Shown piece by piece: positions 26,305 to 52,214 of a stretch of 64,000 nt of DNA. Both the position numbers and the translations under genes were made by a program. The stretch comes from Candidatus Levybacteria bacterium RIFCSPHIGHO2_01_FULL_40_16. Lineage in GTDB: Bacteria > Patescibacteriota > Microgenomatia > Levybacterales > UBA12049. The notes under the pieces were generated by a model. It had not been told where the DNA came from and made no database searches. It saw only the letters and a list, made by a program, of their open reading frames with translations. The stretch's first letter is position 1, and the number at the start of each line of letters is the position of its first letter. Location: NCBI GenBank assembly GCA_001783805.1, contig MFNS01000001.1, positions 64,649-128,648 of the forward strand, in the 5' to 3' direction.

Positions 26305-26334
26305 ATAGGTCAACTCTAATTGTACCACCATTAT

Positions 26335-28086
26335 ATGATGAATTTATTAAAAAGTAACCTCTTTTTAAGAAAGAACATCTTTTTTCTTTTGTTAATACTT
26401 ATTGCAATTTTGCCGCGTTTTATTTTCTTAAGCAACGTGCCAAATGCAATAAATCAAGATGAACTGCATTATGCTCTCGATGCAAAATCTTTTTTCTTAA
26501 CCGGCAAGGATGTTCTAGGACAAACTTCTCTGGTTGACGTACTGTTATTCAATTCTCCCAAAAGTGAACCTTTGCAAGCCGAGTTGCAATATTTTTTTGA
26601 GATTCCGGTTTTGGGACTTATGGGTTTTTCCATGACAAATTTGGTATTGCCCAATGTATTGCTAGGGATTTTAACTGTAGTCTTGATTTATCTCATAACC
26701 TTAAAGTTATTTGATAAAAATACTGCTCTTTTGGCTGGGTTAATTGCTGCAATAAATCCATGGTTGATTTTTTTAAGTAGAACCACCTATGAGGCAGGTC
26801 CGGCAACATTATTTTTTCTCTGCGTTTTTTACATGATGTTAATAACAAAAAGTTGGAAAATTTTACTGACAATCCCCTTCGCGCTTCTTGCTTTTTATTC
26901 TCATATTGCAACGAAACTTATTTTTCTGCCTTTTATGTCATTAAGTATTTTGTATGCTTTTTTGTCTGTTAATAAAAGAAAATATTTTAAACAGTATTTA
27001 TTTCTTTTTATGTTCTCGTGCGTTTTGACATTATTCTTCCTATTTCAACTTAAACAGGGAAAGTCTTCCAGGGGGACTGAAATTTTACTACCAAATAGCA
27101 TTGCAATAATACAGCGGGTTAATGAAGTCAGAAAAGCTACCATTCAGAACCCTTTTATCAATTTAGTCGAGAATAAATTCACAGTTTATGGATCTTTTCT
27201 TGTCAGGAATACATTTAATATTTTTTCTCCTACTTATCTTTTTGCTAATGCCGATTATTTTTTTATGCTGGGCGGACATGGCCTTTTCTACTATATAGAT
27301 TCATTTTTTTTAATTATTGGTTTAGGATGGGCGTTTTTGAAAAATAAGAAGTTATTTCTTACTTTTGTTTTAATTATATTTGTTGGAATTGTGCCCCAGA
27401 TAGTGCATAGCTCGAGTGTGAATGGAAATTTTAGTCATCACATAGCCCTGTCAATACCATTTATGATTATTTTTATGTCGCTTGGTATCAATGGTGTTTT
27501 CGGGAAGTTTAAAGATAAAAAACGTAGAGTTTTATTTATCGTTCTAATTGCTTTAATATATATCTTTTCATTCTTAAGGTTTTCTAATTTTTATTTTTTT
27601 AGGTACCCTCTTCAGGCAGGAACGTTTGGGGTGGAAAACCGTATTCTTTCTAAATACATAACCCTTTCTGAAGATGAAAAAAGACCAATAATTATTTATT
27701 CGGTTAACCCTATGCTTGCTTTTAAAGAATTTTTGTTCTATTCAAATCTCTACAACAAGAATACGGTAAAAACAATAAATGAATCGCTGAAAGACAAGAA
27801 GTTTATTTATAATAATATTTCATTTATTTCGTGTAGCAGGAGCATGCTTCCCGATTCGCAACCGGTATTAGTTATTGATGATGCGAATTGCGATAGATCA
27901 AGAAGTGAACATTCTATAAGTATTGCTCAATTGGAGGATAGCGGAAAAAAATATAATATCTATGGTGATAAAGCATGCAGTAGTTTTAATTTGCCTGGTT
28001 ATATTTCGAATTTGAAATTATCAGATTTTGATGTTGAAAATCTTCCGGCAAAAAAGTTTTGCGAAACATTCATAGTTTCTTATTAA
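26335..28086 (+). CDS. GT39/PMT-ArnT-family-like membrane glycosyltransferase (divergent paralog)
   Basis: INQDELHYALDAKS loop-1 DE motif, and the C-terminal domain (CDRSRSEH...FCETF) is conserved with the 24535 gene. The start was set at ATG 26335; the ORF track starts at TTG 26320. Confidence 0.45.
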   Translation: MMNLLKSNLFLRKNIFFLLLILIAILPRFIFLSNVPNAINQDELHYALDAKSFFLTGKDVLGQTSLVDVLLFNSPKSEPLQAELQYFFEIPVLGLMGFSMTNLVLPNVLLGILTVVLIYLITLKLFDKNTALLAGLIAAINPWLIFLSRTTYEAGPATLFFLCVFYMMLITKSWKILLTIPFALLAFYSHIATKLIFLPFMSLSILYAFLSVNKRKYFKQYLFLFMFSCVLTLFFLFQLKQGKSSRGTEILLPNSIAIIQRVNEVRKATIQNPFINLVENKFTVYGSFLVRNTFNIFSPTYLFANADYFFMLGGHGLFYYIDSFFLIIGLGWAFLKNKKLFLTFVLIIFVGIVPQIVHSSSVNGNFSHHIALSIPFMIIFMSLGINGVFGKFKDKKRRVLFIVLIALIYIFSFLRFSNFYFFRYPLQAGTFGVENRILSKYITLSEDEKRPIIIYSVNPMLAFKEFLFYSNLYNKNTVKTINESLKDKKFIYNNISFISCSRSMLPDSQPVLVIDDANCDRSRSEHSISIAQLEDSGKKYNIYGDKACSSFNLPGYISNLKLSDFDVENLPAKKFCETFIVSY

Positions 28087-29811: not shown

Positions 29812-30741
29812 ATGATTTCTGTAGTTGTGCCTGTTTACAACGAGCATGAAAGTCTTGAAGCTTTTTTTAAAGTTTTAATTCCCAATTTATCTAAATTAGA
29901 CAACGAACATGAAGCAATCTTTGTTGATGATGGGTCAACGGATAAAACTCTTGAGATTTTAAAGGACTTTGCGGCTAAAAATTCAAATGTCAAAGTTTTT
30001 TCTTTTAGGAAAAATAGAGGAAAAGCAGAAGCGTTAATAGTTGGTTTTCAAAAAGCAAAGGGAGATTTAATTGTTACTTTAGATGCGGATTTGCAGGACA
30101 GGCCGGAAGAGATCGCAAAACTAATAAAAAAACAAAAAGAAGGTTTTGACTTAGTTTGCGGTTGGAGAAAAAATAGAAAAGATGCTTTGAGGGCGAACCT
30201 TTCTTCCAAACTTTTTAATTCTATAGCATCTATTCTTTGGGGATTAAAATTACATGATTATAATTGTGGATTAAAACTCTACACTAAAGATGTTGCAAAA
30301 TCTCTTAATCTTTATGGAGGCATGCATAGGTTTATACCCCTTTTGGTTGCCGACCAAGGTTTTAGCGTCGCGGAAGTGGCAATCGAACATGTTGAAAGAA
30401 AATATGGAAAGTCAAAATATGGATTTTCCAAAATCTGGAAAGATTTGCCCGACATATTTACTATGCTTTTTTTGAGCAAATACAGTAAAAGACCATTTCA
30501 TTTTTTCGGAGCAGCAGGAAGCTTAATGGTTTTAATTGGCGCATTAATATTGGGATATCTTACTTACCTTAAGATCTTGGGCGAAGCCATTGGTCAACGG
30601 CCGCTTTTATTTTTGGGGATGCTATTTATAATTAGCGGATTTCAGCTGTTTTTTACGGGATTTTTAGCGGATCTAATTATTAATATTTCTTCAAAGAAGC
30701 AGAAAGATTTTACTTTTAAATATTCCAGCGAAGAGTTGTAA
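29812..30741 (+). CDS. polyprenyl-phosphate glycosyltransferase, GT2 (GtrB/ArnC/Ppm1/DPM1-like)
   Basis: VVVPVYNE...DDGSTD...DADLQD catalytic domain plus two C-terminal TM helices. This is the GtrB/DPM-synthase architecture. Confidence 0.65.
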   Translation: MISVVVPVYNEHESLEAFFKVLIPNLSKLDNEHEAIFVDDGSTDKTLEILKDFAAKNSNVKVFSFRKNRGKAEALIVGFQKAKGDLIVTLDADLQDRPEEIAKLIKKQKEGFDLVCGWRKNRKDALRANLSSKLFNSIASILWGLKLHDYNCGLKLYTKDVAKSLNLYGGMHRFIPLLVADQGFSVAEVAIEHVERKYGKSKYGFSKIWKDLPDIFTMLFLSKYSKRPFHFFGAAGSLMVLIGALILGYLTYLKILGEAIGQRPLLFLGMLFIISGFQLFFTGFLADLIINISSKKQKDFTFKYSSEEL

Positions 30742-32310: not shown

Positions 32311-32844
32311 ATGAAGATTGGGATAGACATATCGCAAATTGCCTACGAGGGAACAGGGGTGGCAAACTTTCTTAGTAATTTAGTCTCGAATTTATTAAAA
32401 TTTGATAAAAAAAATGAATATATTCTATTTTACTCTTCTTTAAGAAGAAATTTTCAATTTTCAATTTTCAATTTTCAAGCAAATCGCAATTTTCAAGTCA
32501 AAAAATTCAAATTTCCACCCTTAATTCTGGATTTACTTTGGAATAGGCTGCATGTTTTGCCGATTGAATGGCTGATTGGAGACGTGGATGTTTTTGTTAC
32601 TTCTGATTGGACAGAACCGCCGACTATTAAGGCAAAAAAAGCAACTATTCTGTACGATCTGATTATTTATAAATATCCGAATGAGACAGATAAAAAAATT
32701 GTTGAAGTGCAAAAACGCAAACTAAAATGGGTTAAAAAAGAGTCGGAAATGATATTTTGCATTTCCGAGTCGGCGAAAAAAGATGCGGAGGAAATCTTGG
32801 GGATAGAAAATAAGCGATTAAAGGTTATTTATCCCGGAATTTGA
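32311..32844 (+). pseudogene. GT4 glycosyltransferase, N-terminal domain only (truncated duplicate)
   Basis: 177 aa ending at the YPGI interdomain motif with no C-terminal EX7E domain. The next gene starts 2 nt later with its own N-domain. Contains a TTTTCAA x4 heptamer array. Confidence 0.4.
32451..32496 (+). repeat. heptamer array TTTTCAA x4 (+1) inside GT4 N-domain gene
   Basis: Four perfect copies at 32451–32478 and a fifth at 32490–32496. Read in frame it encodes NFQFSIFNFQ. Confidence 0.8.
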
Positions 32845-32845
32845 T

Positions 32846-33988
32846 ATGACAATAGGAATTAATGGATATGAGGCGGTAATTCCCAGATTTGGTTATGATC
32901 CAAAAACCGGCTTGCCGCGAAGGGTTGGGAGCGGAGAGTATTGTTTTCAGCTTTTATTAAACTTAAATAAAATTGATAAACAGAATAGCTACATAATTTA
33001 CCTTCCGGAAAACCCAACATCGGATTTACCCAAAGAATCCTCAAGCTGGCATTACAAGATTATTAAACCGAGAAAAATGTGGACTTTGTTCGGATTATCT
33101 TTGGAATTTCTATTTAGACGTTCGAAACCCGACGTTTTCCTTTCCCCGACGCACTATTTGCCAATTATCGCGCCAAACCGGTCGGCAATCTCCATTTTGG
33201 ACGTGTCATATCTAAAATTTCCGGAGCTTTTTCAAAAATCTGATCTCAATCAACTGACGAAATGGACTAAATATTCCGCCCAAAAGGCCTCAAAGATTTT
33301 TACTATTAGCCAGGCTAGCAAAGATGATATAATTGAAAAATACGGGATTATGGCAAACAAAGTTGTGGTAACATATCCCGGCGTAAAACTCAAAACTCAA
33401 ATGTCAAAACTCAAAACTGAAGCTCAAAACTCAAATCTGCTTAAGGAAAAGTATGGGATTGAAGGGAAGTATATTTTGTTTGTGGGGACGCTACAGCCCC
33501 GTAAGAATATCGTCCGCTTAATAGAGGCTTTTTCTAAGCTAAACAAGCCAAATCTAGATTTGATTGTTGTGGGCAAGAAAGGCTGGAAATTTGAGGAAAT
33601 CCTTGCAGCGCCTAAAAAGTTCGGAATAGAAAATAAAGTTAAGTTTCTGGGTTCCGTTTCGGATGAAGATCTGCCAGCTTTTTATAAGAATGCAATTTGT
33701 TTTGTTTTGCCAAGTCTGTATGAGGGCTTCGGACTGCCGGTTTTGGAAGCAATGAAGTATGGATGTCCGGTTGTAACCAGCAATATCTCCTCTCTTCCCG
33801 AGGCGGGAGGGGACGCGGCTTTGTACATAGATCCGCTTAATGTTGCAGATATAAAGAAGAATCTGGAATTAATAATTAACAATCAGGAATTACGCAAAGA
33901 TTTGATAAGAAAAGGCTACGAGCAGGTCAAAAAATTTAGCTGGGAAAAAACCGCAAAAGAAACATTAAGGGTGCTGGAGGGCATTTAA
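32846..33988 (+). CDS. GT4-family glycosyltransferase
   Basis: N-domain plus C-domain with EGFGLPVLEAM (EX7E). Confidence 0.65.
   Translation: MTIGINGYEAVIPRFGYDPKTGLPRRVGSGEYCFQLLLNLNKIDKQNSYIIYLPENPTSDLPKESSSWHYKIIKPRKMWTLFGLSLEFLFRRSKPDVFLSPTHYLPIIAPNRSAISILDVSYLKFPELFQKSDLNQLTKWTKYSAQKASKIFTISQASKDDIIEKYGIMANKVVVTYPGVKLKTQMSKLKTEAQNSNLLKEKYGIEGKYILFVGTLQPRKNIVRLIEAFSKLNKPNLDLIVVGKKGWKFEEILAAPKKFGIENKVKFLGSVSDEDLPAFYKNAICFVLPSLYEGFGLPVLEAMKYGCPVVTSNISSLPEAGGDAALYIDPLNVADIKKNLELIINNQELRKDLIRKGYEQVKKFSWEKTAKETLRVLEGI
33389..33436 (+). repeat. degenerate heptamer array CTCAAAA/CTCAAAT x~7 in GT4 interdomain linker
   Basis: Units are ctcaaaa ctcaaat gtcaaaa ctcaaaa ctgaag ctcaaaa ctcaaat. 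Encodes KLKTQMSKLKTEAQNSN. Confidence 0.75.
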
Positions 33989-33989
33989 G

Positions 33990-34544
33990 ATGATTAATAA
34001 AATTTTTAGGAGAATAGGGACGATATTATTAGAGTTTGTTGTTTTTAAATTGCACTACGTTGGATATGTCCCGAGCCATCATTATCGGAGGTTTTTTTAC
34101 CGGCTTTTTGGTATGAAGATAGGCCGCGGATCAACCATGCATATGGGAGCCCGTTTTTATAATCCGTATAACATTACAATAGGAGAGGATTCGATTATTG
34201 GCGAAGGTGCAGTTTTGGACGGAAGAGATAAGCTCGCAATTGGCAATCACGTGAGTATTGCAACAGATGTAATGATCTATAACGCGGAGCATGATATCAA
34301 AGATCCAAATTTTAAGGCAATTTCCGCACCGGTTGTGATACAGGATTACGTATTTATCGGTCCGCGGGCGATTATTCTTCCGGGAGTAACAATCAAAAAA
34401 GGTGCGGTTGTCGGAGCCGGCGCAGTAGTCACAAAAGATGTTGAAGAAAACGTAATTGTCGGAGGCGTACCTGCGAAGCAAATTGGGGAAAGAGGAGTAA
34501 AAGATTTAAATTACCGACTTGGCCGCGCCGCATGGTTTAGATAG
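33990..34544 (+). CDS. hexapeptide-repeat (LbH) sugar O-acetyltransferase
   Basis: IGEGAVLDG...IGNHVSIA...GVTIKKGAVVGAGAVV left-handed beta-helix repeats. WcaF/WbbJ-like. Confidence 0.6.
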   Translation: MINKIFRRIGTILLEFVVFKLHYVGYVPSHHYRRFFYRLFGMKIGRGSTMHMGARFYNPYNITIGEDSIIGEGAVLDGRDKLAIGNHVSIATDVMIYNAEHDIKDPNFKAISAPVVIQDYVFIGPRAIILPGVTIKKGAVVGAGAVVTKDVEENVIVGGVPAKQIGERGVKDLNYRLGRAAWFR

Positions 34545-34550
34545 TAACTA

Positions 34551-34578
34551 ATTGTTAAATTGCTATATTGTTAAATTG
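34551..34578 (+). promoter_or_regulatory. 12-nt direct repeat (ATTGTTAAATTG x2) with embedded extended -10 (TGcTATATT) upstream of the GT2 gene
   Basis: Copies at 34551–34562 and 34567–34578. Possible operator/promoter. Confidence 0.3.
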
Positions 34579-34583
34579 TTACG

Positions 34584-35474
34584 ATGGAACTTTCTATTAT
34601 TGTTCTTTCCTATAATACGAGGAATTTAACGCTTGCATGCCTCGAATCGATTGCCTCTCAATATAAGAAGGAGTTGGAAGAAAAAAAGCTGGAAATAATT
34701 GTTGTAGATAACAATTCAACTGACGACTCGGTAGCAAGTATTAAGTATTGCGTATCCCACCTTCGCCAAGGCTTCGGCGGGCAGGCAAGTATTAGGCTCA
34801 TTGAGAGTAAGGAGAATGTGGGGTTTGGCAGAGGATGCAATGTCGGAGCAAAAGAGTCGTCGGGAAAATATCTTCTATTTCTCAATTCGGACACACAAGT
34901 TTTAGACGAGGGTTTTTTATCAATGGTTGGTTTTATGGATAAGAGTAAAAATGTTGCGATTTTGGGAGGAAAACTTGAAAACAATGACGGATCAACTCAA
35001 CGGTCTTGCGGAAAATTCTATAATCTCTTTAATCTTTTGCTTATACTGTTAGGTTTTGAACGATTAGGTTTTTTGAGATCAAGCCCGAGTAAAATTCAAA
35101 AAGTAGATTGGGTTAGCGGTGCCTGCATGATGGTAAGACATGATGTTTTTGAAAAATTAACCGGATTTGATGAGAAACTTTTTATGTATGTAGAGGATAT
35201 GGAGATATGTTTTAGAGCGAAAAAGCTCGGTTTTCTGACTTATTTCTATCCCGATCTTAAGCTTATGCATAAGTCTTTGGGAAGCAGTAACCGCACATTT
35301 GCTATAATTAATATCTATAAGGGCATTTTGCATTTTTACGCAAAGCATAAATCCTATCCGGAATACCTAACTGCCAAAATATTATTAATTGCAAAAGCTG
35401 AAATATTAATTTTGGTCGGATTCTTAACATTTAATCCGGAGTTGAGAAATAGATATAGAAAAGCAATTTCTTGA
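34584..35474 (+). CDS. GT2-family glycosyltransferase
   Basis: LSIIVLSYNTRNLT...VVDNNSTDDS. Confidence 0.6.
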   Translation: MELSIIVLSYNTRNLTLACLESIASQYKKELEEKKLEIIVVDNNSTDDSVASIKYCVSHLRQGFGGQASIRLIESKENVGFGRGCNVGAKESSGKYLLFLNSDTQVLDEGFLSMVGFMDKSKNVAILGGKLENNDGSTQRSCGKFYNLFNLLLILLGFERLGFLRSSPSKIQKVDWVSGACMMVRHDVFEKLTGFDEKLFMYVEDMEICFRAKKLGFLTYFYPDLKLMHKSLGSSNRTFAIINIYKGILHFYAKHKSYPEYLTAKILLIAKAEILILVGFLTFNPELRNRYRKAIS

Positions 35475-35478: not shown

Positions 35479-38400
35479 ATGAAGATTTTAAAATGGATTG
35501 TTCACAATATATTATTCGTTTTTACTTTGTTTTTGTTGCTATTTATTCCTCTTTATCCAAAAATTCCTCTTTTGGATATACAGCATACGTGGGTATATGT
35601 CCGGGTCGAGGATTTTGTTGTTGTGCTGGCTATTGCCGCCTGGATTATTTTACTTTTGCTCAAGAGAGTTAGCCTAAAGACTCCATTGACGCTGCCGATA
35701 CTTTTATTTTGGGTTGTGGGTGGTTTAGCTACTTTACATGGAGTATTGTTTTTTTTCCCAACCTTGTCCAATGTTTTTTCAAATGTTGCCTTATTAAGTT
35801 TTCTAAGGGGAATAGAATACATGTTTCTGTTTTTTGTCGCTTATGCGGGTATTAAATCTGAAAAAAATATCTATCCAGTTGCGATTATTTTACCTATCAC
35901 ATTACTCTTGATTGTGGGGTATGGATTTGGTCAAAAATATCTAGGGTTTCCGGCCTTTTTGACGATGAATGAGGAAGCTGCTAAAGGGATTCCAATTCAG
36001 CTTTCCTCATTATCACGCATTCCCTCTACCTTTGCCGGACATTACGATTTGGCCGGATATTTAGTCTTGACAATCCCTATTGTTGCAAGTATGTTTTTTG
36101 GATTTAAAAATTGGCTTATAAAGATTTTTCTGTTTATCACCGGATTTTTGGGTGTGATTATTCTTTTTTTGACGGTATCCCGCATTTCATTTTTTGCCCT
36201 TTTATTATCACTACTTATGCTATTGATTTTTCAAAGAAAAAAATGGGTCATGGTAGCGCTTTTTATAATCATGATCGCTTTTTTTGGCTTTTTCCCAACA
36301 CTGCTGCAGCGTTTTAGCAGTATGGTTTCGGAAGTTGACGTATTGGTTAATGCTCAAACGGGTTCGTCAATCGGTCAAGCCAGAATTGTTCCGGCGGACT
36401 ATTTTAAGGATAAAGTTGTTCTCACGCAGGCATTTCCAAACGAGGATTTAAATCCTAATCTAGCCAGTTCCTCTGCTTTGATATATCCGTTTGAGAAAAT
36501 ACCCCCTCAAGCGGTTTTAGTATTTGAACCAAATGTTTCAAATGGGGAGAATTTACCGCAGGGAACAAGTTATATAAACCTTCCGCTGTCTCCGGTGACG
36601 GGCAAGGCACGTGAGTATTTTTTTGAAAAATCAACTAACCGGGCAGGAATAATTTCAACGGAAATACGCGTCTACCCCGGAGATTATGTTATAAAAAGGG
36701 CAAAAGCGTATGACATTTCTTTTACCACGAGATTTCAGGGTGAATGGCCCAATACTCTTACGGCTTTTAAAAGAAATATTTTCTTAGGCAGCGGTTACGG
36801 GTCGGTTAGTCTGGCAGTAGACAATAATTATTTGCGCATTTTGGGAGAAACTGGACTCCTTGGATTTATTTCTTTCTTCTCAATCTTTATAATTGCAGGA
36901 ATTTATATTGGAAAATTTTTACCAAAACTAAGATCACCTTTAGCCAAGAGTTTTATTCTAGGTTTTATAGCCGGCTCACTTGGGTTGGCAGTAAATGCGG
37001 TACTAATTGACGTTTTTGTTGCTTCGAAGATTGCTTTTATCTATTGGCTTTTGCTGGGAATAGCCTTGGGAATTTTAACCTCACATAAGGAAGAAATTAT
37101 CGATCTTTATGGGGAGATAAAAAAAATAGTCACCTCTTCCTACGCGATTATTATTTATCTTTTTATTACGATTTTTATAATGTTCTCTTCGATTTTAAAC
37201 TTCTATTTTGTAGGCGATGATTTTACTTGGTTTCGATGGGCTGCTAATTGCAGCAACTGTCTTTCTTTCTCGACAATAATTAACTACTTCACGAACGCAA
37301 GTGGGTTTTTCTATCGGCCGGGAACAAAAATCTTTTTTGATTTAATGTATTCAACATTTTGGTTTAATCAAGCCGTGTATCATCTGGCCTCAATTCTTCT
37401 TCATTTTACCGTCGCAACGTTGATATTTTTGCTCGCAAAAAAAATCTTGAAAAATCTTGCTATGTCTGCGGCTGTTGCATTTTTATTCCTAATTTTAAGC
37501 GGATATTTAGAGATTGTTTTATGGATTGCTGCAGTTGGTCATCTTTTCAATGCGGTCTTTGTTCTCTTAAGCTTGTTGATGTTTGTTCTTTGGAAGGAAA
37601 AGAAAAAAATGATCTACCTTATCGCTTCTTCCATTTTTACCTTTTTAAGTCTAATGTTTTACGAAATAGGGGTTGTTGCTCCATTCCTGATAATCCTTTA
37701 CAATTCGATTTTCGGGAGTCAGACGGGTAAAGATGCTATTTCCAAAAAAGCAGCGTATTTTATTGCATTTTTACCTCTTTTGCCTTATTCTTTATTACGT
37801 TTTTTTGCGCAAAGCCATTGGTTTAGCGGTGATTACAGCTACAATTTGATTAAGTTACCTTTCAACGTTGTAGGCAATCTTCTTGGATATTTTTCTCTTA
37901 CACTTTTTGGGCCCGCTTCTTTAAGCTTCTATGAGAATCTTAGAGTCTTATCAAGGAATAATGTGCTAATTACGCTACTGGGGTTATTAATTTTACTATT
38001 CTTGTTAGCTAAAACTTATCGGTCTGCGATTGTAAAGTTGGATACTCAAGAAAAGAAAATTTTGGCTTTCGGCTCATTGTTCTTTGCAATTTCCTTACTG
38101 CCGTTTTTGGGATTGGGGAATATAACTTCAAGATATAGCTACTTGTCTTCCTTTGGGCTCGTAATTCTTTTTGTATTTTTTCTTAAAAAAACTTATTATT
38201 ATTTGCTGAATAATAATAAATATATCGCTTCAACAATCATTATTTTGATAGTTATCATCTTTTCTTCTTTCCAGCTTTTTCAATTCCAAAGAATCCAGAC
38301 TGATTGGAAGGAAGCAGGGGAAAAAACAAAAAGCTTTCTCACGTCACTGGATTGGATATATGCGCATTATCCTGAGCAATACACCAAACAACTTTATTTC

Positions 38401-38643
38401 GTAAATGTGCCAATCCGTAACGGAGAAGCATGGGTGTTTCCTGTCGGACTAAATGATGCGGCCTGGCTTGTTTTTAGAGGAAAAGATGTTAAGATTTCTC
38501 AAGCTCAATCATCAGAACAGGCATTTGCTAATCTTGGGAGCGGTTATGGTAAAGTATTTGAATTTGATAGTAACGCAAAACTTATAGAGATGGTCAGAAA
38601 CCGTCAGGGAAAGATTGTTCCGGTCAGCCAGCAATATAAGTAA
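35479..38643 (+). CDS. 1054-aa fusion: O-antigen-ligase/PglL-like (Wzy_C) module + second GT-C-like polytopic module
   Basis: The N-half carries the Wzy_C signature (...FLGSGYGSVSLAVDNNYLRILGETGLLGF...). The C-half (about aa 540–1054) is another multi-TM region with a VGDDF acidic loop-1 motif and a C-terminal soluble domain. Confidence 0.45.
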   Translation: MKILKWIVHNILFVFTLFLLLFIPLYPKIPLLDIQHTWVYVRVEDFVVVLAIAAWIILLLLKRVSLKTPLTLPILLFWVVGGLATLHGVLFFFPTLSNVFSNVALLSFLRGIEYMFLFFVAYAGIKSEKNIYPVAIILPITLLLIVGYGFGQKYLGFPAFLTMNEEAAKGIPIQLSSLSRIPSTFAGHYDLAGYLVLTIPIVASMFFGFKNWLIKIFLFITGFLGVIILFLTVSRISFFALLLSLLMLLIFQRKKWVMVALFIIMIAFFGFFPTLLQRFSSMVSEVDVLVNAQTGSSIGQARIVPADYFKDKVVLTQAFPNEDLNPNLASSSALIYPFEKIPPQAVLVFEPNVSNGENLPQGTSYINLPLSPVTGKAREYFFEKSTNRAGIISTEIRVYPGDYVIKRAKAYDISFTTRFQGEWPNTLTAFKRNIFLGSGYGSVSLAVDNNYLRILGETGLLGFISFFSIFIIAGIYIGKFLPKLRSPLAKSFILGFIAGSLGLAVNAVLIDVFVASKIAFIYWLLLGIALGILTSHKEEIIDLYGEIKKIVTSSYAIIIYLFITIFIMFSSILNFYFVGDDFTWFRWAANCSNCLSFSTIINYFTNASGFFYRPGTKIFFDLMYSTFWFNQAVYHLASILLHFTVATLIFLLAKKILKNLAMSAAVAFLFLILSGYLEIVLWIAAVGHLFNAVFVLLSLLMFVLWKEKKKMIYLIASSIFTFLSLMFYEIGVVAPFLIILYNSIFGSQTGKDAISKKAAYFIAFLPLLPYSLLRFFAQSHWFSGDYSYNLIKLPFNVVGNLLGYFSLTLFGPASLSFYENLRVLSRNNVLITLLGLLILLFLLAKTYRSAIVKLDTQEKKILAFGSLFFAISLLPFLGLGNITSRYSYLSSFGLVILFVFFLKKTYYYLLNNNKYIASTIIILIVIIFSSFQLFQFQRIQTDWKEAGEKTKSFLTSLDWIYAHYPEQYTKQLYFVNVPIRNGEAWVFPVGLNDAAWLVFRGKDVKISQAQSSEQAFANLGSGYGKVFEFDSNAKLIEMVRNRQGKIVPVSQQYK

Positions 38644-38645: not shown

Positions 38646-40118
38646 ATGAAAAAAAATGAAATTTTATTTTTGCTATTTATTCTTGTAGGAGCATTTGCGG
38701 TTAGACTCTATCATTTTAGTTGGCCGATTGCCGATTGGCATTCCTGGCGTCAGACAGATACATCGGCAGTTTCCCGCAATTTCGTTCAAAATGGATTTGA
38801 TGTTTTACATCCTAAATTTGAAGATTTATCATCTTCAGTTTCTTTAATTGATAATCCACAGGGATATCGTTTCGTTGAATTTCCTTTTTATAACATTTTG
38901 CAGGCCGGACTGTTTGAAACATTCCAAAAGTTTACAATAGAAGAATGGGGCAGGTTGGTCACAATTTCTTTTTCACTTATTTCCATAATTTTTCTTTACC
39001 TTTTGGTAAAAAAATACACTTCAGTTAGGGCTGGTCTATTTGCGGCGTTTTTCTACGCGTTTATTCCGTACAACATTTATTACGGCAGAGCTATTCTTCC
39101 AGATTCGCTTATGCTTGCGTCATTTTTGGCGGCCATATATTTCTTCAGCCAATATCTGGATAACGAATATAAGAAAAACTTATATTACTTCTTAGGTATT
39201 ATTTCTTTGGCCATAGCATTTCTTATTAAACCCTATGTTGCTTTTTATATTCTACCTTTCGCGTACCTAATATATTCAAAATACGGCATTAAAGGATTTA
39301 TGAGATTAGATATGTGGTTATTCTTTTTGTTATCAATACTTCCATTTGGTTTGTGGCGAATGTGGATGAGTCAATATCCGGCAGGAATACCGAGAAATAA
39401 CTGGTTATGGAACGGAACGGGAATAAGATTTAGGCCAGCATTTTTCCAATGGATTTTTGCCGAAAGAATCGCAAAATTAATTCTCGGTTATTGGGGGTTG
39501 ATATTTGTCATATTGGGATTAGTAATAAAACCTCTCAAAAAAGAGGGCTGGCTTTTTTTGACATTTATAATATCAAGCCTAATGTACCTTTTTACTTTTG
39601 CAACCGGTAATGTGCAGCATGATTATTATCAGATGCTCATAATTCCAACACTTGCGATTTTTTTCGCTAAAGGATTTGATGGAATTTTGCGTCTTGGTAA
39701 AGAAGGAGTGCTTAATTACAAAATAGGTTTGATATCAAGTATAACTGCAATTATCTTTATGCTTGCTTTTGGATGGTTTGCAATTCGTGATTATTACAGT
39801 ATTCAGCACCCTAATATTATCGCAGCAGGTCGGGCAGTTGACCAATTGGTTCCCGAAGACGCAAAAGTTATTGCTCCTTATGGTGGAGATACAACTTTTT
39901 TATATTTTACCAATCGGCAAGGATGGCCGGTTTTTGACAGGTCTTTTAAGAAATTTAAGGAAGCGGGGGCATCGCATATTGCCTTTGCCGATCCAACCTC
40001 TGAAGACCTTAATTTGGAAGAGCTATTTAAACCCGTAGTCATAACTTCTACATACGCGATATTTGACATGACAAAACCTACTCCCGAAGGCTTGATGGCT
40101 CAACAGAAAAAAGATTAA
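38646..40118 (+). CDS. GT-C-like membrane glycosyltransferase (PMT_2/ArnT-like)
   Basis: 490 aa. WHSWRQTDTSAVSRNF loop-1 region. Multi-TM. Confidence 0.4.
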   Translation: MKKNEILFLLFILVGAFAVRLYHFSWPIADWHSWRQTDTSAVSRNFVQNGFDVLHPKFEDLSSSVSLIDNPQGYRFVEFPFYNILQAGLFETFQKFTIEEWGRLVTISFSLISIIFLYLLVKKYTSVRAGLFAAFFYAFIPYNIYYGRAILPDSLMLASFLAAIYFFSQYLDNEYKKNLYYFLGIISLAIAFLIKPYVAFYILPFAYLIYSKYGIKGFMRLDMWLFFLLSILPFGLWRMWMSQYPAGIPRNNWLWNGTGIRFRPAFFQWIFAERIAKLILGYWGLIFVILGLVIKPLKKEGWLFLTFIISSLMYLFTFATGNVQHDYYQMLIIPTLAIFFAKGFDGILRLGKEGVLNYKIGLISSITAIIFMLAFGWFAIRDYYSIQHPNIIAAGRAVDQLVPEDAKVIAPYGGDTTFLYFTNRQGWPVFDRSFKKFKEAGASHIAFADPTSEDLNLEELFKPVVITSTYAIFDMTKPTPEGLMAQQKKD

Positions 40119-40119
40119 G

Positions 40120-41328
40120 ATGAACATTCTTTTGGTTTCATCATATCTGCCTTATCCTCTTTTTTCCGGAGGACACATCCGCTTGTATAATTTGATAAAA
40201 GAATTAAGTCATAAACATAAAATAACTTTGGTTTGTGAAAAAAGAGATTATCAAGGTGATGCCGAAATCTCGGAGCTTAAGAAATTCTGCAAAAAAGTTA
40301 TTTCAGTTCCCCGTAAAAAGCAATGGTCTTTGAAAAATATTACAAAAACCGGATTGTCAGCTTTACCCTTTTTAATAATAGGTCACACTAGTAGCGAAAT
40401 GCGGAAAGAAATTCAAAGAGAACTCAATGAAAATCAATTTGATTTAATTCACGCGGAGACTTCTTATGTAATGCAGAATATTCCTGAAACCAAAATTCCT
40501 ATTATTTTGGCAGAGCACAATGTGGAATATTTGGTCTACAAGCGTTTTGCAGATAAAGCACCATTGTTGCTGAGGCCGCTTTTGTATATGGATGTTTTAA
40601 AGCTTAAGCGTTGGGAAGAAGCAGTATGGAAAAAGGCCACGAAATTGATAGCGGTTTCAAAAATTGAAAAAGAAATTATGAACAAAGTTAGAAAAGATGT
40701 TGTTGTTGTTTCAAATGGAGTGGACATTGAAAAATTTACAATTAACGATTTACAATTAACAAGAGATGGAAGAGAAAAAAGAATTTTGTTTATTGGGGAA
40801 TTTAAATGGGTGCAAAATAGAGACGCAATCGAATGGATAATTAAAGAAATTTGGCCAAAGCTTATGGCCGAATTTATCCCGCCTATAACAGGCGGTGGGA
40901 TTAAATTATGGGTAGTTGGGAGGAATATTCCTGATTCAATTAGAGAATTGACAAGCGATAAAAATATTATATTTGATGACAAAGCACCAAAAGAAACGGA
41001 AGAGATATTCAGAAAATCAAATCTTCTCCTGGCTCCAATTCAGGTTGGCGGAGGAACGAGTTTCAAAATTTTGGAAGCAATGGCGAGCGGCGTTCCAGTT
41101 GTCACAACAGATCTAGGTAATGCAATAGGAGCAAAAGAAGATTTAGAAATAGTTATTGCAAATGAGGCGCACGATTTTATTGTAAAGATTAAAGAACTAT
41201 TCGAGAATAAGAAATTTTATGAAACAATTTCTCAAAATGCCAGAAAGTTAATTGAAGAAAAATTTAACTGGCAAAAAATTGCAGGAGATCTAGATTCCGT
41301 TTATGAGCTAGTCGTGCCTTATGCTTGA
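40120..41328 (+). CDS. GT4-family glycosyltransferase
   Basis: C-domain GGTSFKILEAMASGVPVV (EX7E). Confidence 0.65.
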   Translation: MNILLVSSYLPYPLFSGGHIRLYNLIKELSHKHKITLVCEKRDYQGDAEISELKKFCKKVISVPRKKQWSLKNITKTGLSALPFLIIGHTSSEMRKEIQRELNENQFDLIHAETSYVMQNIPETKIPIILAEHNVEYLVYKRFADKAPLLLRPLLYMDVLKLKRWEEAVWKKATKLIAVSKIEKEIMNKVRKDVVVVSNGVDIEKFTINDLQLTRDGREKRILFIGEFKWVQNRDAIEWIIKEIWPKLMAEFIPPITGGGIKLWVVGRNIPDSIRELTSDKNIIFDDKAPKETEEIFRKSNLLLAPIQVGGGTSFKILEAMASGVPVVTTDLGNAIGAKEDLEIVIANEAHDFIVKIKELFENKKFYETISQNARKLIEEKFNWQKIAGDLDSVYELVVPYA

Positions 41329-42199
41329 CCTTTCTATTATTATTGTCAGTTACAACGCAAAGGAGTTCTTGAGGAAATGCATTGCGTCAATCGTGAAGAA
41401 CATAAAGAACGTTTCATACGAAGTGATTGTTGTTGATAATAATTCAACAGACAGTTCTTCCGAAATGGTCAAAAAAGAGTTTCCCCAAATAAAGTTAATT
41501 GCGAATAAGAAAAATTTTGGGTTTTCAAAGGCGAATAATCAGGGAATTAAAATCTCAGAGGAAAGCAAATATATTTTATTTTTAAATCCGGATACGATTG
41601 TTAACGAACAGTCAGTTGAGGGAATGGTTAAATTTATGGATAGTCATTCAGATGCGGGGGCATCCACTTGCAAACTCGTAATGCCGAATGGAAGAATCGA
41701 TGATGCATCCCATCGCGGTTTTCCAACTCCTTGGAATTCTTTCTGCCATTTCTCAGGAATGTCCCGAATATTTCCAAAATCACAGATTTTCGCAGGATAT
41801 AACTTGGGATGGATGAACTTTGAGAAAACCCACGAAATAGATGTGCTGGCTGGAGCATTCATGTTGGTTAGAAGAGTTGCGGGTAAGGAAGCGAAATGGT
41901 GGGATGAAGATTATTTTTTCTACGGGGAAGATATAGATTTTTGTTATCAGCTAAAAGCAAAAGGCTGGAAAATTTATTATGTCCCGACCTTTTCTATAAT
42001 TCATTACAAAGGCGTGAGCGGCGGGATAAAATCTGTTTCTAAAGAAATCACCACAGCGAGTAAGGAAACAAAAGAAATGGTAACCAAATGGCGTTTTAAG
42101 GCAATGAGAATTTTTTACAATAAACATTACAGGCAAAAATATCCTTGGATTATTAATTTATTAGTAAATGTTGGAATTTCAATCAGAGAAAAAATATGA
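41321..42199 (+). CDS. GT2-family glycosyltransferase
   Basis: LSIIIVSYNAKEFL...VVDNNSTDSS. Confidence 0.6.
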   Translation: MLDLSIIIVSYNAKEFLRKCIASIVKNIKNVSYEVIVVDNNSTDSSSEMVKKEFPQIKLIANKKNFGFSKANNQGIKISEESKYILFLNPDTIVNEQSVEGMVKFMDSHSDAGASTCKLVMPNGRIDDASHRGFPTPWNSFCHFSGMSRIFPKSQIFAGYNLGWMNFEKTHEIDVLAGAFMLVRRVAGKEAKWWDEDYFFYGEDIDFCYQLKAKGWKIYYVPTFSIIHYKGVSGGIKSVSKEITTASKETKEMVTKWRFKAMRIFYNKHYRQKYPWIINLLVNVGISIREKI

Positions 42200-43338
42200 A
42201 AATAGGAATTGATACGAGGCTTTGGGGTGAAACTGGAGTTGGGAGATATATTCGCAATTTAGTGTCTGAACTTTCTAAAATAGACTTTAAGAATAGTTAT
42301 GTCTTGTTCGCCTTAAACAAAAACGAAAAAAACATTAAATCCGCAATTCGTAATTCTCAATTCGTAATTCGATTAACTGATATTAAGTGGCATACGCTTG
42401 AAGAACAATTAAAATTTCCTGCAATTTTGAATAAAGAAAATCTCGATCTAATACATTTTCCTTATTTTTCCGTTCCCGCTCTTTATAACAAACCATTTGT
42501 TTTTACGATTCACGATCTTATTATCGATCATTTTCCAACCGGACAGGCATCTGCTTTGCCATTTCCCATCTATAACCTTAAAAGGTTAGCATATAATCTT
42601 GTACTTAGTTACGCAGCAAAAAAAGCAAAAAAAATCATTACTGTTTCAAATGCGACGAAAGATGAAATTATAGATCATTTAAAAGTTAATCCCGAAAAAG
42701 TTGCAGTGACCTATGAGGGGGTGGATGATAGAATATCAAATATCAAATATCAAAAATCAAAAATTGATAGTGAATACTTTCTTTGTGTTGGGAATGCGTA
42801 TCCGCATAAAAATCTTGAGAGATTATTGGAAGCGTTTAAAATATTGGATAACGACACGAAACTTGTTTTGGTTGGAAAGGAAGATTATTTTTACAAAAGA
42901 TTAAGGAGTAAGGTGGCGGGAATGAGACTTTCCGACAAAACAATTCTCTTACAAAATGTAGCTGATGAAGAATTGTCAAGTTTGTACCAAAATGCAAAAG
43001 CTTTAATCTTGCCGTCTTTAATGGAAGGGTTTGGTCTGCCGGCTTTGGAGGCGATGGCGAATAAATGTTTGGTTTTGGCATCAGATATACCTTCATTGAG
43101 AGAAATATGTGGTAATGCCGCTTTGTATTTTAACCCATTAAGCATTGATGAATTGACAAAAAAGCTCAATATGGTTACCTCCCATACTACAGGGTATGGA
43201 AGGTTAGAAGAAATAAGAAAAAGAGGAATTGAGAGAGTCAAGCTTTTTTCCTGGCGCAAAATGGCAAGGAAGACATTGAAAATATATGAAAGTAGTTCTT
43301 CGGCAAGTCGAAGATACCCAGAGGGGCACTCAGAATAA
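42196..43338 (+). CDS. GT4-family glycosyltransferase
   Basis: EGFGLPALEAMANKCLVL. Contains two heptamer arrays (AATTCGT x4 and AATATCA x4–5). Confidence 0.65.
   Translation: MKIGIDTRLWGETGVGRYIRNLVSELSKIDFKNSYVLFALNKNEKNIKSAIRNSQFVIRLTDIKWHTLEEQLKFPAILNKENLDLIHFPYFSVPALYNKPFVFTIHDLIIDHFPTGQASALPFPIYNLKRLAYNLVLSYAAKKAKKIITVSNATKDEIIDHLKVNPEKVAVTYEGVDDRISNIKYQKSKIDSEYFLCVGNAYPHKNLERLLEAFKILDNDTKLVLVGKEDYFYKRLRSKVAGMRLSDKTILLQNVADEELSSLYQNAKALILPSLMEGFGLPALEAMANKCLVLASDIPSLREICGNAALYFNPLSIDELTKKLNMVTSHTTGYGRLEEIRKRGIERVKLFSWRKMARKTLKIYESSSSASRRYPEGHSE
42345..42372 (+). repeat. heptamer array AATTCGT-like x4 in GT4 N-domain
   Basis: Units are aattcgt aattctc aattcgt aattcga. Confidence 0.8.
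42732..42766 (+). repeat. heptamer array AATATCA x3 + AAAATCA + AAAATTG in GT4 interdomain linker
   Basis: Encodes ISNIKYQKSKI. Confidence 0.75.
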
Positions 43339-43365
43339 ACTTACTTATTATTGCAAGTTCATCCT

Positions 43366-44535
43366 ATGAAAGTGGCATTAGTGTACGACCGATTGAATAA
43401 ATGGGGAGGGGCAGAAAGAGTAATGCTTGCTTTGCATAAGCTATTTCCTCTAGCTCCGCTTTACAGCTCAGTTTACGATAAAAAGAAAGCTCCTTGGGCC
43501 CTTCGTTTTAACTCAGGGCAAGCAAAAATTAAAACTTCTTTCCTTCAAAACTTTCCATTCGCCATGCGCCATGAGCTATATGCTGGCCTGATGCCTTTGG
43601 CGTTTGAGAGCTTTAATTTTGACGAGTTTGATTTAGTAATTTCCATAACTTCGGAAGCGGCAAAAGGAATTATTACTAAGCCCCAAACAAAACATATTTG
43701 TTATTGTTTAACGCCGACCCGTTATCTTTGGAGTGGATACAAAGACTATTTTAATAATCCGGTTCTTCGTTTTCTTTCATTTCCGGTTGTTTGGTATTTG
43801 AAGTTTTGGGATAAAATTGCAGCGCAAAGGCCGGACGCGTACATTGCGATTTCAAAAGAGGTTCAGATGAGGATTAAGAAGTATTATGGCAGAGAATCAA
43901 CCGTGGTGTACCCGCCAATCGAAATCTCAAATCTCAAATCTCAAATCTCAAATAAATCTCAAAATGCCAAATACAAAATACAAAATATCCCTTATTTCTT
44001 AATTGTTTCCCGTCTAGTTCCGTATAAGAAAATAGATCTTGCAATAAGAACTTTTAATAAATTAAAACTTCCCTTAAAAATAATTGGAACAGGCTCACAG
44101 ATGCAGGAATTAAAATCAATGGCGGAGCCGACAATTGAGCTTCTGGGTAACTTGACGGATAAAGAGCTGGTAAGGTATTATAGTGAGTGTTGCGCTTTGG
44201 TTTTTCCCGGTCCTGAAGATTTCGGTTTAACAATCTTAGAGGCGCAGGTTTTTGGCAAGCCGGTTATCGCTTTTAGAGGTGGAGGGGCTCTGGAAACAAT
44301 CATTGAAAAAAAGACAGGCGTTTTTTTTGAAGAACAAACAATCGAGAGCCTAACCAAAACAATAAAGCAATTTAACAAAATGAAATTTGATCCAAGAGAT
44401 TGCATCGAGCAAGCAAACAAATTTAATTTTAAAGTGTTTGAGGAGCGATTTATGCAAGAGATCCTTCGGCTGATGCCTCGTGCCGCCGGCATAGCCTTTG
44501 GCGACGCACGGCAGGATGACATTAATAAATTATGA
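43366..44535 (+). CDS. GT4-family glycosyltransferase
   Basis: MKVALVYDRL... and the C-domain EDFGLTILEAQVFGKPVI. A long AAATCTC/AAATACA heptamer array lies in the interdomain linker. The start was set at ATG 43366; the track starts at TTG 43351. Confidence 0.6.
   Translation: MKVALVYDRLNKWGGAERVMLALHKLFPLAPLYSSVYDKKKAPWALRFNSGQAKIKTSFLQNFPFAMRHELYAGLMPLAFESFNFDEFDLVISITSEAAKGIITKPQTKHICYCLTPTRYLWSGYKDYFNNPVLRFLSFPVVWYLKFWDKIAAQRPDAYIAISKEVQMRIKKYYGRESTVVYPPIEISNLKSQISNKSQNAKYKIQNIPYFLIVSRLVPYKKIDLAIRTFNKLKLPLKIIGTGSQMQELKSMAEPTIELLGNLTDKELVRYYSECCALVFPGPEDFGLTILEAQVFGKPVIAFRGGGALETIIEKKTGVFFEEQTIESLTKTIKQFNKMKFDPRDCIEQANKFNFKVFEERFMQEILRLMPRAAGIAFGDARQDDINKL
43922..43989 (+). repeat. heptamer array AAATCTC x4 followed by AAATACA x2–3 in GT4 interdomain linker
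   Basis: 68 nt of AAAT-N-N-C-type units. Encodes EISNLKSQISNKSQNAKYKIQNI. Confidence 0.8.
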
Positions 44536-45617: not shown

Positions 45618-46292
45618 ATGTCTAATATGCCAGTAACGGAGATTGAAAAAAGCAATTATTATCTATTCGCAAAAAGAACAATGGATGTTATTTCTTCTAT
45701 ATTTTTGCTGATATTTTTTTCTCCAGCAATACTAATTATAGCCATAGCGATAAAGCTTGATTCAAAAGGGCCGGTTCTGGCAGATACACCAAAAAGAGTT
45801 GGAAAAGATGGAAAACTGTTCAAAATGTATAAATTCAGATCCATGGTGGAAAATGCCCATGAAATATTAAGGGAAAATCCTAAGTACTCAAATCTATATA
45901 ATGCTTACAAAAGAGGAAGTTATAAATTGAAAGATGATCCGCGCATTACCAGGGTTGGTCACTTCATACGCAAACATTCTTTGGATGAAATACCGCAAGC
46001 CCTGAATATCTTAAAAGGTGAAATGAGCCTGGTAGGTCCCCGGGCTTATTATCCTGATGAATTGCGCGATCAGCAAAAAAAATACCCCCACACGATTGAT
46101 TCTGTCAAGATTGTGCTTTCAGTCAAGCCCGGAGTCACCGGATTCTGGCAGGTTTCAGGTCGAAGCGAGATAAATTTCGATAAGCGTATTGAAATGGACG
46201 CATCTTATGTCAAAAAAAGATCTCTTCTTTATGACCTTTGGATTATTGCAAAGACCCCTTTGGCTATGGTTACAGGGCGCGGCGCCCTCTAG
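45618..46292 (+). CDS. small initiating phosphoglycosyl transferase (bacterial sugar transferase, PglC/WbaP C-domain type)
   Basis: One N-terminal TM plus ...PRITRVGHFIRKHSLDEIPQALNILKGEMSLVGPRA...GVTGFWQVSGR. Canonical bacterial sugar-transferase (PF02397-type) motifs. Confidence 0.75.
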   Translation: MSNMPVTEIEKSNYYLFAKRTMDVISSIFLLIFFSPAILIIAIAIKLDSKGPVLADTPKRVGKDGKLFKMYKFRSMVENAHEILRENPKYSNLYNAYKRGSYKLKDDPRITRVGHFIRKHSLDEIPQALNILKGEMSLVGPRAYYPDELRDQQKKYPHTIDSVKIVLSVKPGVTGFWQVSGRSEINFDKRIEMDASYVKKRSLLYDLWIIAKTPLAMVTGRGAL

Positions 46293-48331: not shown

Positions 48332-48882
48332 TGAGGACATATAGAATAGAGGGAATTGTTCTTAGGCGCAGAAATTTGGGTGAAGCGGATAGGATTTTAA
48401 CAATCCTAAGTAAAGAATCAGGCAAAATAGTGGTTAAAGCTCCGGGGGTAAGGCGAATTCATAGCCGCAGATCTTCCCATATTGAGTTATTAAACTTTTC
48501 GGAGTTTACTCTTTATTCAGGCTCCAAAACCTTCATGCCGATAGTCACGGAAGCCCAAATCATTGATGATTTTTCCCGTATCAAAAAAGACCTCCACAAG
48601 ATTGGAGTGGCCTATTATATTTGCGAGCTGATAAATGGTTTATGCGCGGATAATCAAGAAAATCGAGGAGTATTTTTTCATTTGAAAGCTAGTCTCTCCG
48701 AGCTTTCCGGAACTTTGGACACAGCTGTTCTTATAAAAAAGTTTGAGAAAGATCTTTTGACGGAATTGGGATTTTGGTCGGAAGCAAAACTCCTGCAAAC
48801 TCAGGATTCGCAAATAGTGATGGAGAGATTGTTAGAGAGAAAACTTAAAACCCTACGTGTCCTACCGCTTTTTACTCCGTAA
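48331..48882 (+). CDS. recO: DNA repair protein RecO (short form)
   Basis: N-terminal OB-fold: YRIEGIVLRRRNLGEADRILTILSKESGKIVVKAPGVRR. 183 aa. Confidence 0.6.
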   Translation: MRTYRIEGIVLRRRNLGEADRILTILSKESGKIVVKAPGVRRIHSRRSSHIELLNFSEFTLYSGSKTFMPIVTEAQIIDDFSRIKKDLHKIGVAYYICELINGLCADNQENRGVFFHLKASLSELSGTLDTAVLIKKFEKDLLTELGFWSEAKLLQTQDSQIVMERLLERKLKTLRVLPLFTP

Positions 48883-48895
48883 CTGCGTTTTGGTG

Positions 48896-48904: not shown

Positions 48905-48913
48905 ATTTAGAAA

Positions 48914-50215: not shown

Positions 50216-50223
50216 TCTGCCAT

Positions 50224-52211: not shown

Positions 52212-52214
52212 TAT

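Follow-up and report, generated by a model that had tools for sequence, protein, structure and literature searches.

We describe a large membrane protein encoded on a 64,000-nucleotide stretch of contig MFNS01000001.1 from Candidatus Levybacteria bacterium RIFCSPHIGHO2_01_FULL_40_16 (assembly GCA_001783805.1; the whole stretch is referred to as the window, and all positions are given in it), in which a Wzy_C module of the WaaL/SEDS type is joined in one polypeptide to a second polytopic module with the glycosyltransferase C (GT-C) fold. The fusion is intact and conserved, as are the catalytic-type residues of both modules and the operon in which the gene lies, and in some lineages the two modules are encoded by separate, adjacent genes. 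On balance we favor the reading, with some reserve, that the protein is a bifunctional, two-site extracytoplasmic glycosyltransferase in a conserved Microgenomates cell-surface glycan operon, its N-terminal module (N-module) acting on an undecaprenyl-diphosphate (Und-PP)-linked glycan and its C-terminal module (C-module) drawing on an undecaprenyl-monophosphate (Und-P) sugar.

The gene, first noted in a preliminary description of this DNA, is an uninterrupted open reading frame (ORF) from ATG to stop, and both motifs quoted there were found at their places. Hydropathy and AlphaFold2 (AF2) models agree on the layout, which consists of a 12-helix N-terminal region with a large outer loop, a cytoplasmic linker, ~13 further helices and an alpha/beta domain; the full-length AF2 model has a predicted local distance difference test score (pLDDT) of 74 and a predicted template modeling score (pTM) of 0.75.

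35479..38643, plus strand: whole fusion gene, 1054 amino acids (aa), ~25 transmembrane (TM) helices; ORF list, full-length homologues, in-frame tblastn, AF2 model
37084..37137, plus strand: cytoplasmic linker at the module junction (aa 536-553), a short amphipathic helix; hydropathy and AF2 model, in frame in relatives

All of the top 120 database relatives, mainly from metagenome-assembled genomes of Candidatus Levybacteria, are likewise fused (120/120; 1009-1074 aa, 54-100% identity, 96-100% coverage), and several already carry the NCBI name 'O-antigen ligase family protein'. A scan of one genome per species gave 80 loci in species-representative genomes, mostly Levyibacteriota with some Gottesman- and Roizmanbacteria. 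In every locus on a complete contig, tblastn with the window protein produced a single in-frame alignment from aa 1-2 to ~1040-1050, and the in-frame fusion is present in ~70 species-level genomes from independent assemblies. Two observations on the database records themselves may be useful to others. The relative P0001, listed as a 100% match, differs by eye at aa 890 (38146-38148; YLTSFG versus YLSSFG), and many assemblies with a Levybacteria-type gene and operon (L001, L002, L008, L009 and others) are titled 'uncultured Gammaproteobacteria bacterium' (TPA), titles that look wrong, as gene content and similarity indicate Patescibacteria.

The preliminary description had raised the concern that a frameshift error might have joined two genes artificially. 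Split versions of both genes do occur in other lineages, and tblastn found a frame change at two related loci, L018 and L047, the only such cases among the 80; both observations speak for an assembly or sequencing artefact joining two neighbors. Against this, the identical in-frame fusion recurs in ~70 independent species-level assemblies and in 120/120 of the best database matches, and the linker region aligns throughout the fusion family. The junction of the window gene (aa 536-553) has no internal Met and neither a stop nor a start codon, and it is at this position that the stop and start codons of the split relatives are located. A sequencing-induced fusion is excluded because the same in-frame fusion is conserved in ~70 species; the frameshift reading is rejected on the in-frame tblastn alignments across species-representative loci, and we give an artefact of either kind next to no chance. 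The 1054-aa fusion is a real, conserved protein of Levybacteria-type bacteria of the candidate phyla radiation.

The N-terminal half has the following landmarks:

35479..37089, plus strand: N-module, aa 1-537, a 12-TM WaaL/SEDS-type (GT-C_B, Wzy_C) module; Pfam, Foldseek, hhalign
36181..36183, plus strand: R235, the counterpart of R215 in E. coli WaaL (LTVSR versus LTQTR) and predicted to bind the diphosphate; motif comparison and hhalign, 119/119 relatives
36325..36714, plus strand: beta-rich extracytoplasmic insert, aa 283-412, inside the large outer loop; AF2 secondary structure, with patchy confidence
36730..36732, plus strand: R418 (TTRFQGEW), likely equivalent to WaaL R288, predicted second diphosphate-binding Arg; motif comparison, 119/119 relatives
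36781..36867, plus strand: Wzy_C signature block FLGSGYGSVSLAVDNNYLRILGETGLLGF, aa 435-463; located in the translation
36820..36822, plus strand: D448 (AVDNN), at the catalytic-His position of O-antigen ligases (WaaL H338, HLHNE); hhalign, Asp in 118/119 relatives

A Pfam scan of the window protein, one of the checks proposed beforehand, detected Wzy_C in the N-half only, in two stretches (26.7 bits, E 5.5e-6; below the gathering score of 31.7 bits), and nothing in the C-half at E<0.1; precomputed PF04932 matches exist for many relatives, both fused and stand-alone. The signature block FLGSGYGSVSLAVDNNYLRILGETGLLGF that had been singled out in this half does start at aa 435 (nucleotide 36781). 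AlphaFold modeling, another of the proposed checks, gave a WaaL-like N-half and a GT-C-like C-half by Foldseek: the N-module of the full-length model, with its 12 helices and large outer loop, matched WaaL (7tpg_B, prob 1.0, TM-score 0.56 normalized to WaaL) as well as FtsW and RodA. Sequence alignment was harder to obtain. A shallow profile of Levybacteria sequences gave no hhalign alignment to E. coli WaaL, and one was obtained only after stand-alone relatives were added; the broader profile (119 relatives, fused and stand-alone, also used for conservation) aligned over the full length of E. coli K-12 WaaL (E 1.2e-3, with a low probability as the template was a single sequence) and paired R235 with WaaL R215 and D448 with H338. 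A further arginine, R278, is also invariant in the 119-relative alignment.

The GT-C_B fold class unites O-antigen ligases with SEDS proteins (PMC10920833). In O-antigen ligases two arginines bind the Und-PP diphosphate and a histidine activates the acceptor, whereas Asp or Glu takes the WaaL His position in SEDS proteins and in most inverting polymerase families of the Wzy type within the same clan, GT-C1 (Meitil et al., PMC10920833). The N-module combines the 12-TM WaaL-type fold and large outer loop with two predicted Und-PP-binding arginines, and it carries D448 in place of the ligase histidine; R235, R418 and D448 are together the residues expected of a GT-C1 polymerase. Two features of PglL-type O-oligosaccharyltransferases are missing, as the His site is Asp and the Pfam scan found no PglL_A domain. 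The N-half is thus a genuine Wzy_C/GT-C_B module with a predicted catalytic signature of polymerase/SEDS type rather than of WaaL/PglL type. It had been labeled 'O-antigen-ligase/PglL-like Wzy_C', of which the Wzy_C/WaaL fold stands (Pfam, the 7tpg_B match, the Arg motifs); the ligase/PglL part is too specific, since the catalytic His is replaced by a near-invariant Asp (118/119), as in Wzy polymerases and SEDS proteins.

The C-terminal half had been described as a separate polytopic GT-C-like region with VGDDF in its first loop (the motif begins at aa 578, nucleotide 37210) and a soluble C-terminal domain, a view that both Foldseek and AF2 bear out:

37138..38367, plus strand: membrane part of the C-module, aa 554-963, a ~13-TM GT-C_A glycosyltransferase of the TMTC/PMT/ArnT clan; Foldseek, hhalign
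37210..37224, plus strand: VGDDF, first outer loop, from aa 578; D580/D581 equivalent to M1 of TMTC proteins, where GT-C enzymes have their catalytic acidic pair; D580 in 87/91, D581 in 91/91
37312..37320, plus strand: Y612-R613-P614 in GFFYRPGTK, equivalent to TMTC M2; hhalign, R613 in 88/92, P614 in 91/92
37660..37665, plus strand: Y728-E729, at the K-E of TMTC M4; hhalign, E729 in 93/102 plus 8 with Asp
38131..38142, plus strand: R885-Y886-S887-Y888 in GNITSRYSYL, equivalent to TMTC M7; hhalign, R885 in 126/131
38371..38628, plus strand: C-terminal extracytoplasmic alpha/beta domain, aa 965-1050; AF2 models, W985, G990 and D993 conserved

Residue conservation in this half was counted in the 150 best cluster representatives, fused and stand-alone. 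Curated families were of little help in placing it: the C-half of the window protein had no NCBIfam match and no Pfam match at E<0.1, the PMT, PMT_2 and TMTC models included, with weak PMT, PMT_2 or GtrII matches in a few distant stand-alone relatives only, and searches of PDB sequences with the full-length and C-half profiles returned nothing at E<=10. Structure was more telling. With the AF2 model of aa 539-1054 (pLDDT 77, pTM 0.78), Foldseek matched human and yeast STT3, ALG12, PglB, AftA, DPY19 and Pmt4, all with prob 1.0 and TM-scores of 0.4-0.5; the model shows the GT-C fold, and acidic residues lie in the first outer loop (D580/D581, after TM1), as in GT-C_A enzymes. The DD loop should lie on the outer face, on the same side as the D448 loop, since 12 helices precede it and the linker is cytoplasmic. 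The family to which the module belongs is large: when 1.84 billion cluster representatives were searched with a profile, 29,448 relatives were recovered at E<=1e-3. A search started from one stand-alone relative (P0183) led to bacterial 'tetratricopeptide repeat proteins' of 560-700 aa, some of which bear the JGI label 'protein O-mannosyl-transferase', and hhalign of the C-half profile against a TMTC-like tetratricopeptide repeat (TPR) protein of Geobacter pickeringii gave prob 94.9% and E 4.8e-8 over 353 columns, pairing YFVGDDF with GFVWDD, FFYRPG with GYYRPL, FHELGVV with AKEPALT and TSRYSYL with AERYLYL.

In TMTC proteins, M1 is a DD of the first outer loop that is strictly conserved and has its counterparts in D55/E56 of ArnT and D77/E78 of Pmt1; M2 is SHKSYRP; M4 is KET(Q)xxT, with a dolichyl-phosphate-binding Lys and a metal-binding Glu; and M7 is ERxxY (Eisenhaber et al., PMC7801869). 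M1, M2 and M7 are recognizable in the C-half. The Lys of M4 is not (aa 728, 37660-37662): most relatives have His there (at least 90% of the aligned Levybacteria sequences), and the window protein shares a Tyr with P0002, its closest relative. The TPR repeats and a match to the Pfam TMTC model are also lacking; the alpha/beta domain occupies the place of the repeats, and the window protein has no TPR match in Pfam. Descent of the C-half by recent duplication of the adjacent PMT_2 gene was considered and found unsupported (hhalign E 0.0065, prob 5.8%). As judged by profile and model, the C-half is a predicted GT-C-fold module homologous to bacterial TMTC-like proteins.

It could be argued that just one of the two modules is catalytic, the other having degenerated into a scaffold for recruiting substrate or partner proteins. 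Neither half of the window protein reaches a curated family threshold, the phosphate-binding Lys of M4 is lost from the C-module, and the His is absent from the N-module site. The catalytic-type residues of both modules, however, are near invariant in distant fused and stand-alone relatives, as expected of active enzymes, and we consider a single active module highly improbable.

Kinship with TMTC and PMT enzymes, which are protein O-mannosyltransferases (PMC7801869), brings up a different order of events from the one we favor. The C-module would place a single sugar on a Ser/Thr of a protein, on a lipid or on a wall acceptor, and the N-module would then ligate an Und-PP glycan onto it en bloc, much as the fused glycosyltransferase of WadA makes the acceptor sugar for its ligase domain (PMC9938171). 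The JGI name 'protein O-mannosyl-transferase' on some relatives fits such priming, as does the finding of no Wzy_C-type protein in the cluster other than the N-module. Against it, Asp, a polymerase-type signature, stands here in place of the catalytic His of ligases and PglL; the TPR repeats, which are the protein-binding part of TMTC-like enzymes, are missing; and no candidate acceptor protein was found. We judge priming followed by ligation to be unlikely. If true, the fusion would not be a polymerase with a decorator but a self-contained machine for O-glycosylation or anchor ligation, with both sites on the outer face in one polypeptide, and distinct from the WaaL, PglL, oligosaccharyltransferase (OST) and LCP routes.

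Relatives in which the two modules are separate bear directly on the proposed cooperation. In L086 two genes replace the fusion in the same operon, one of 531 aa (37% identity to the N-half, with the Asp retained) and one of 470 aa (32% to the C-half), and their stop and start codons overlap (TGATG). The P0188 contig has the equivalent arrangement, adjacent genes of 540 and 480 aa in the same operon, and L087 has a shorter fusion of 929 aa in the same setting. The more distant L088 and L089 have a stand-alone Wzy_C gene followed, with a 4-nucleotide overlap, by a GT-C gene of PMT_2 type, with no homologue of the C-half. The recurring theme, from sequence comparison, is an Asp-type Wzy_C enzyme partnered with a predicted GT-C_A enzyme, of which the Levybacteria fusion would be the most extreme form. 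That the fusion, its split forms and the PMT_2-paired relatives together mark an unrecognized, lineage-wide Microgenomates envelope pathway, in which a TMTC/PMT-like module primes a protein or wall acceptor with one sugar before an Asp-type Wzy_C module builds or ligates an Und-PP-derived glycan on the primer, is an extension to which we attach a low probability.

Separately, L083-L085 carry a stand-alone 481-aa paralogue of the C-half between the GT2 (family 2 glycosyltransferase) and PMT_2 genes, and the C-terminus of a second C-half-like gene upstream of GT2, so the C-half module has been duplicated in some lineages. One high-scoring 'stand-alone' match to the C-half, P0121, proved to be a truncation of the fusion at a contig edge, and others like it may be too; true stand-alone forms are more divergent proteins of ~450-500 aa.

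The fusion gene lies in a tightly packed operon in the order GT4 (family 4 glycosyltransferase) N-domain ORF, GT4, WcaF-like acetyltransferase, GT2, fusion, PMT_2-type GT-C, GT4, GT2, GT4 and GT4. These genes, and two others of the cluster with a predicted role, are placed as follows:

29812..30741, plus strand: ArnC/PgfS-like GT2, predicted undecaprenyl-phosphate sugar synthase; NCBIfam PRK10714 2e-51 over the full length, PgfS 5.6e-41
32311..35474, plus strand: conserved upstream operon genes (GT4 N-domain ORF, GT4, WcaF-like acetyltransferase, GT2); Pfam and NCBIfam, in 51-74/80 related loci
38646..44535, plus strand: conserved downstream operon genes (PMT_2-type GT-C at 38646-40118, GT4, GT2, GT4, GT4); Pfam, in 49-74/80 related loci
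45618..46292, plus strand: WbaP-type polyprenyl glycosylphosphotransferase, predicted initiator of an Und-PP-linked glycan; Pfam Bac_transf 3.3e-61, NCBIfam EPS_sugtrans 1.4e-75

Enzymes of the ArnC/PgfS type make undecaprenyl-phosphate sugars for GT-C enzymes, and the GT2 at 29812-30741 is the likely donor supplier for GT-C_A modules. The window also encodes an enzyme of mannose-1-phosphate guanylyltransferase type and genes for sugar-nucleotide modification.

The following proposal rests on inference as to donors and acceptor, the sequence of the two steps and whether the N-module acts as polymerase or ligase. Cytoplasmic assembly of an oligosaccharide would fall to the cluster's WbaP-type initiator, its GT4 and GT2 enzymes and its acetyltransferase. 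At the outer face the N-module would bind this oligosaccharide in its Und-PP-linked form through R235 and R418, would activate the hydroxyl of the acceptor with D448 as base, and would polymerize or transfer the glycan. The ArnC-like GT2 would make an Und-P sugar donor, from which the C-module, using D580/D581 in the first outer loop, the YRP motif, Glu729 and R885xxY, would transfer a single sugar either to this glycan or to its acceptor; fusion would keep both outer-face steps together. The operon context and the split, translationally coupled forms agree with the earlier suggestion that the protein couples glycan transfer to an extracytoplasmic modification.

Several points weigh against this two-site model. 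On the side of the N-module, the equivalence of R418 with WaaL R288 comes from motif comparison only, as hhalign left R418 unaligned, and AF2 confidence is low near the catalytic loops (aa 161-187 and 435-455). The pathway as annotated is incomplete, because no Wzx-type flippase, Wzz/chain-length regulator or LCP ligase was recognized within the window. On the side of the C-module, the replacement of the phosphate-binding M4 Lys by His or Tyr means that something other than a simple polyprenyl-monophosphate sugar could serve as donor. Finally, the C-module's closest matches in structure are OSTs (STT3 and PglB), enzymes that use diphosphate-linked oligosaccharides.

The last of these points leads to a division of labor in which the N-module polymerizes repeats and the C-module moves the finished lipid-linked polymer to an acceptor, in the manner of an OST or of Lactococcus, for which a WpsI polymerase and a WpsJ GT-C transferase have been proposed (PMC9574508). 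The Asp-type catalytic site of the N-module would suit this well, and no LCP ligase is seen in the window. The motifs of the C-module nevertheless align with the TMTC/ArnT/PMT clan, whose members use monophosphate-linked single sugars; the window protein has no WWDYG-like OST motif; and the Foldseek TM-scores do not set OSTs apart from Pmt4, ALG12 or DPY19. Transfer of a finished polymer by the C-module seems to us quite improbable, and we retain the model in which the C-module adds one sugar from an Und-P donor.

The surroundings of the operon offer further observations. At 32311-32844, a 177-aa ORF consisting of the GT4 N-terminal (Glyco_transf_4) domain alone lies directly 5' of a complete 380-aa GT4 (32846-33988); it is probably a real, separate subunit and not a broken gene, because it is kept in 51/80 related loci. 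Window positions 1-48331 form a ~48 kb continuous surface-glycan region with a DegT aminotransferase, epimerases/dehydratases, an NTP transferase, a CmcI-type methyltransferase, many GT2 and GT4 genes and about a dozen polytopic membrane proteins. Among its multi-TM genes are three paralogous pairs detected by phmmer, 5039-7333 with 14627-16858 (E 1e-125), 19142-20236 with 21931-22983 (E 1e-67), and 24535-26274 (minus strand) with 26320-28086 (plus strand; E 1e-97); a weak PMT_2 match occurs in the third pair only, the other two having no Pfam family. No GtrA-type flippase was recognized. Adjoining the initiating phosphoglycosyl transferase, 46358-48331 encodes a 657-aa single-pass DUF4012 protein, without an NCBIfam match, that might be a chain-length or export factor. 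Directly 3' of the glycan region (48331-63465) are genes for RecO, a class II tRNA synthetase, the MraW methylase, a penicillin-binding protein of transpeptidase type, two Mur ligases, an enolpyruvyl transferase of MurA type and a GlmS-type protein (GATase + SIS); downstream of the glycan region there is thus a dcw-type cell-wall cluster. Given these genes, the organism appears to make peptidoglycan. Bacteria of the candidate phyla radiation have tiny genomes; despite such economy, ~48 kb of the window is devoted to surface glycans.

The architecture had been called unusual. It is rare in the literature, in that our searches for a Wzy_C plus GT-C fusion, for this operon or for envelope glycosylation in Patescibacteria found no relevant description; in nature it is common, being the standard form in Levybacteria and relatives, where it already bears the NCBI label 'O-antigen ligase family protein'. 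The parts are familiar and the function is predicted. What sets it apart from WadA of Brucella is the combination of two polytopic modules (GT-C_B and GT-C_A), with both sites predicted to face outward and Asp in place of His. The conserved fusion and its split, translationally coupled versions provide a Rosetta-stone link, suggesting that WaaL/Wzy-type and TMTC/PMT-type enzymes act on one product, and the pairing suggests physical coupling of two outer-face steps in surface-glycan assembly. They also draw attention to a large group within the 'O-antigen ligase family' that is of Asp type and whose annotation as ligases is probably misleading.

Compared with WaaL of E. coli K-12 (CAZy GT121, PDB 7TPG), the N-module shares the 12-TM GT-C_B fold, the Arg of LTxxR (R235 for R215), a second loop Arg (R418, approximately R288), the C-terminal xNxxL...E.G..G block and the large outer loop between TM9 and TM10. 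It differs in having Asp448 for the catalytic His, a beta-rich insert in the outer loop where WaaL has an alpha-helical domain, a Wzy_C match below the Pfam gathering threshold, and a second membrane glycosyltransferase fused to it. We know of no lipopolysaccharide synthesis in the host lineage. Inverting Wzy polymerases and SEDS proteins (clan GT-C1: GT119 RodA/FtsW and inverting BP-Pol such as GT126; Meitil et al. 2024) resemble the N-module in the GT-C_B fold, the conserved Arg and the Asp/Glu at the WaaL His site, whereas their partners Wzx and Wzz were not found nearby in the window. Fusion to a GT-C_A module is, to our knowledge, not a feature of classical Wzy proteins. The C-module in turn is closest in kind to TMTC-like GT-C proteins with TPR repeats (eukaryotic TMTC1-4 and bacterial examples such as that of Geobacter pickeringii), with a homologous membrane domain and aligned DD, YRP, M4 Glu and RxxY; it has an ~85-aa alpha/beta domain instead of the repeats, His or Tyr for the M4 Lys and no Pfam PMT_2/TMTC match, and it is fused behind a Wzy_C module.

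For the fusion as a whole, the nearest precedent is WadA of Brucella (GT25 + O-antigen ligase), described in 2023 as the first bifunctional O-antigen ligase (PMC9938171, PMC10920833), in which a Wzy_C/O-Lig-type module is likewise fused to a second glycosyltransferase of the same pathway. In WadA the partner sits at the N terminus as a soluble, cytoplasmic domain of GT-A type, and the two sites lie on opposite faces of the membrane; here it is a 13-TM GT-C_A module at the C terminus with both sites outward, and the Pfam scan of the window protein found no GT25 or other soluble glycosyltransferase domain. To the bifunctional Wzy_C enzymes, so far WadA only, the Levybacteria protein would thus add a design with two membrane-embedded, outward-facing sites. 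A further parallel is found in the multicomponent extracytoplasmic glycosylation systems for wall polysaccharides of Gram-positive bacteria (GtrB/GtrA/GtrC, GacI-L, Lactococcus WpsI + WpsJ), in which an Und-P-sugar synthase and outer-face GT-C enzymes act on a lipid-linked or wall glycan. There, too, one polymer is served by a Wzy-like enzyme together with a GT-C enzyme, but as separate proteins, whereas in the Levybacteria protein the two are fused.

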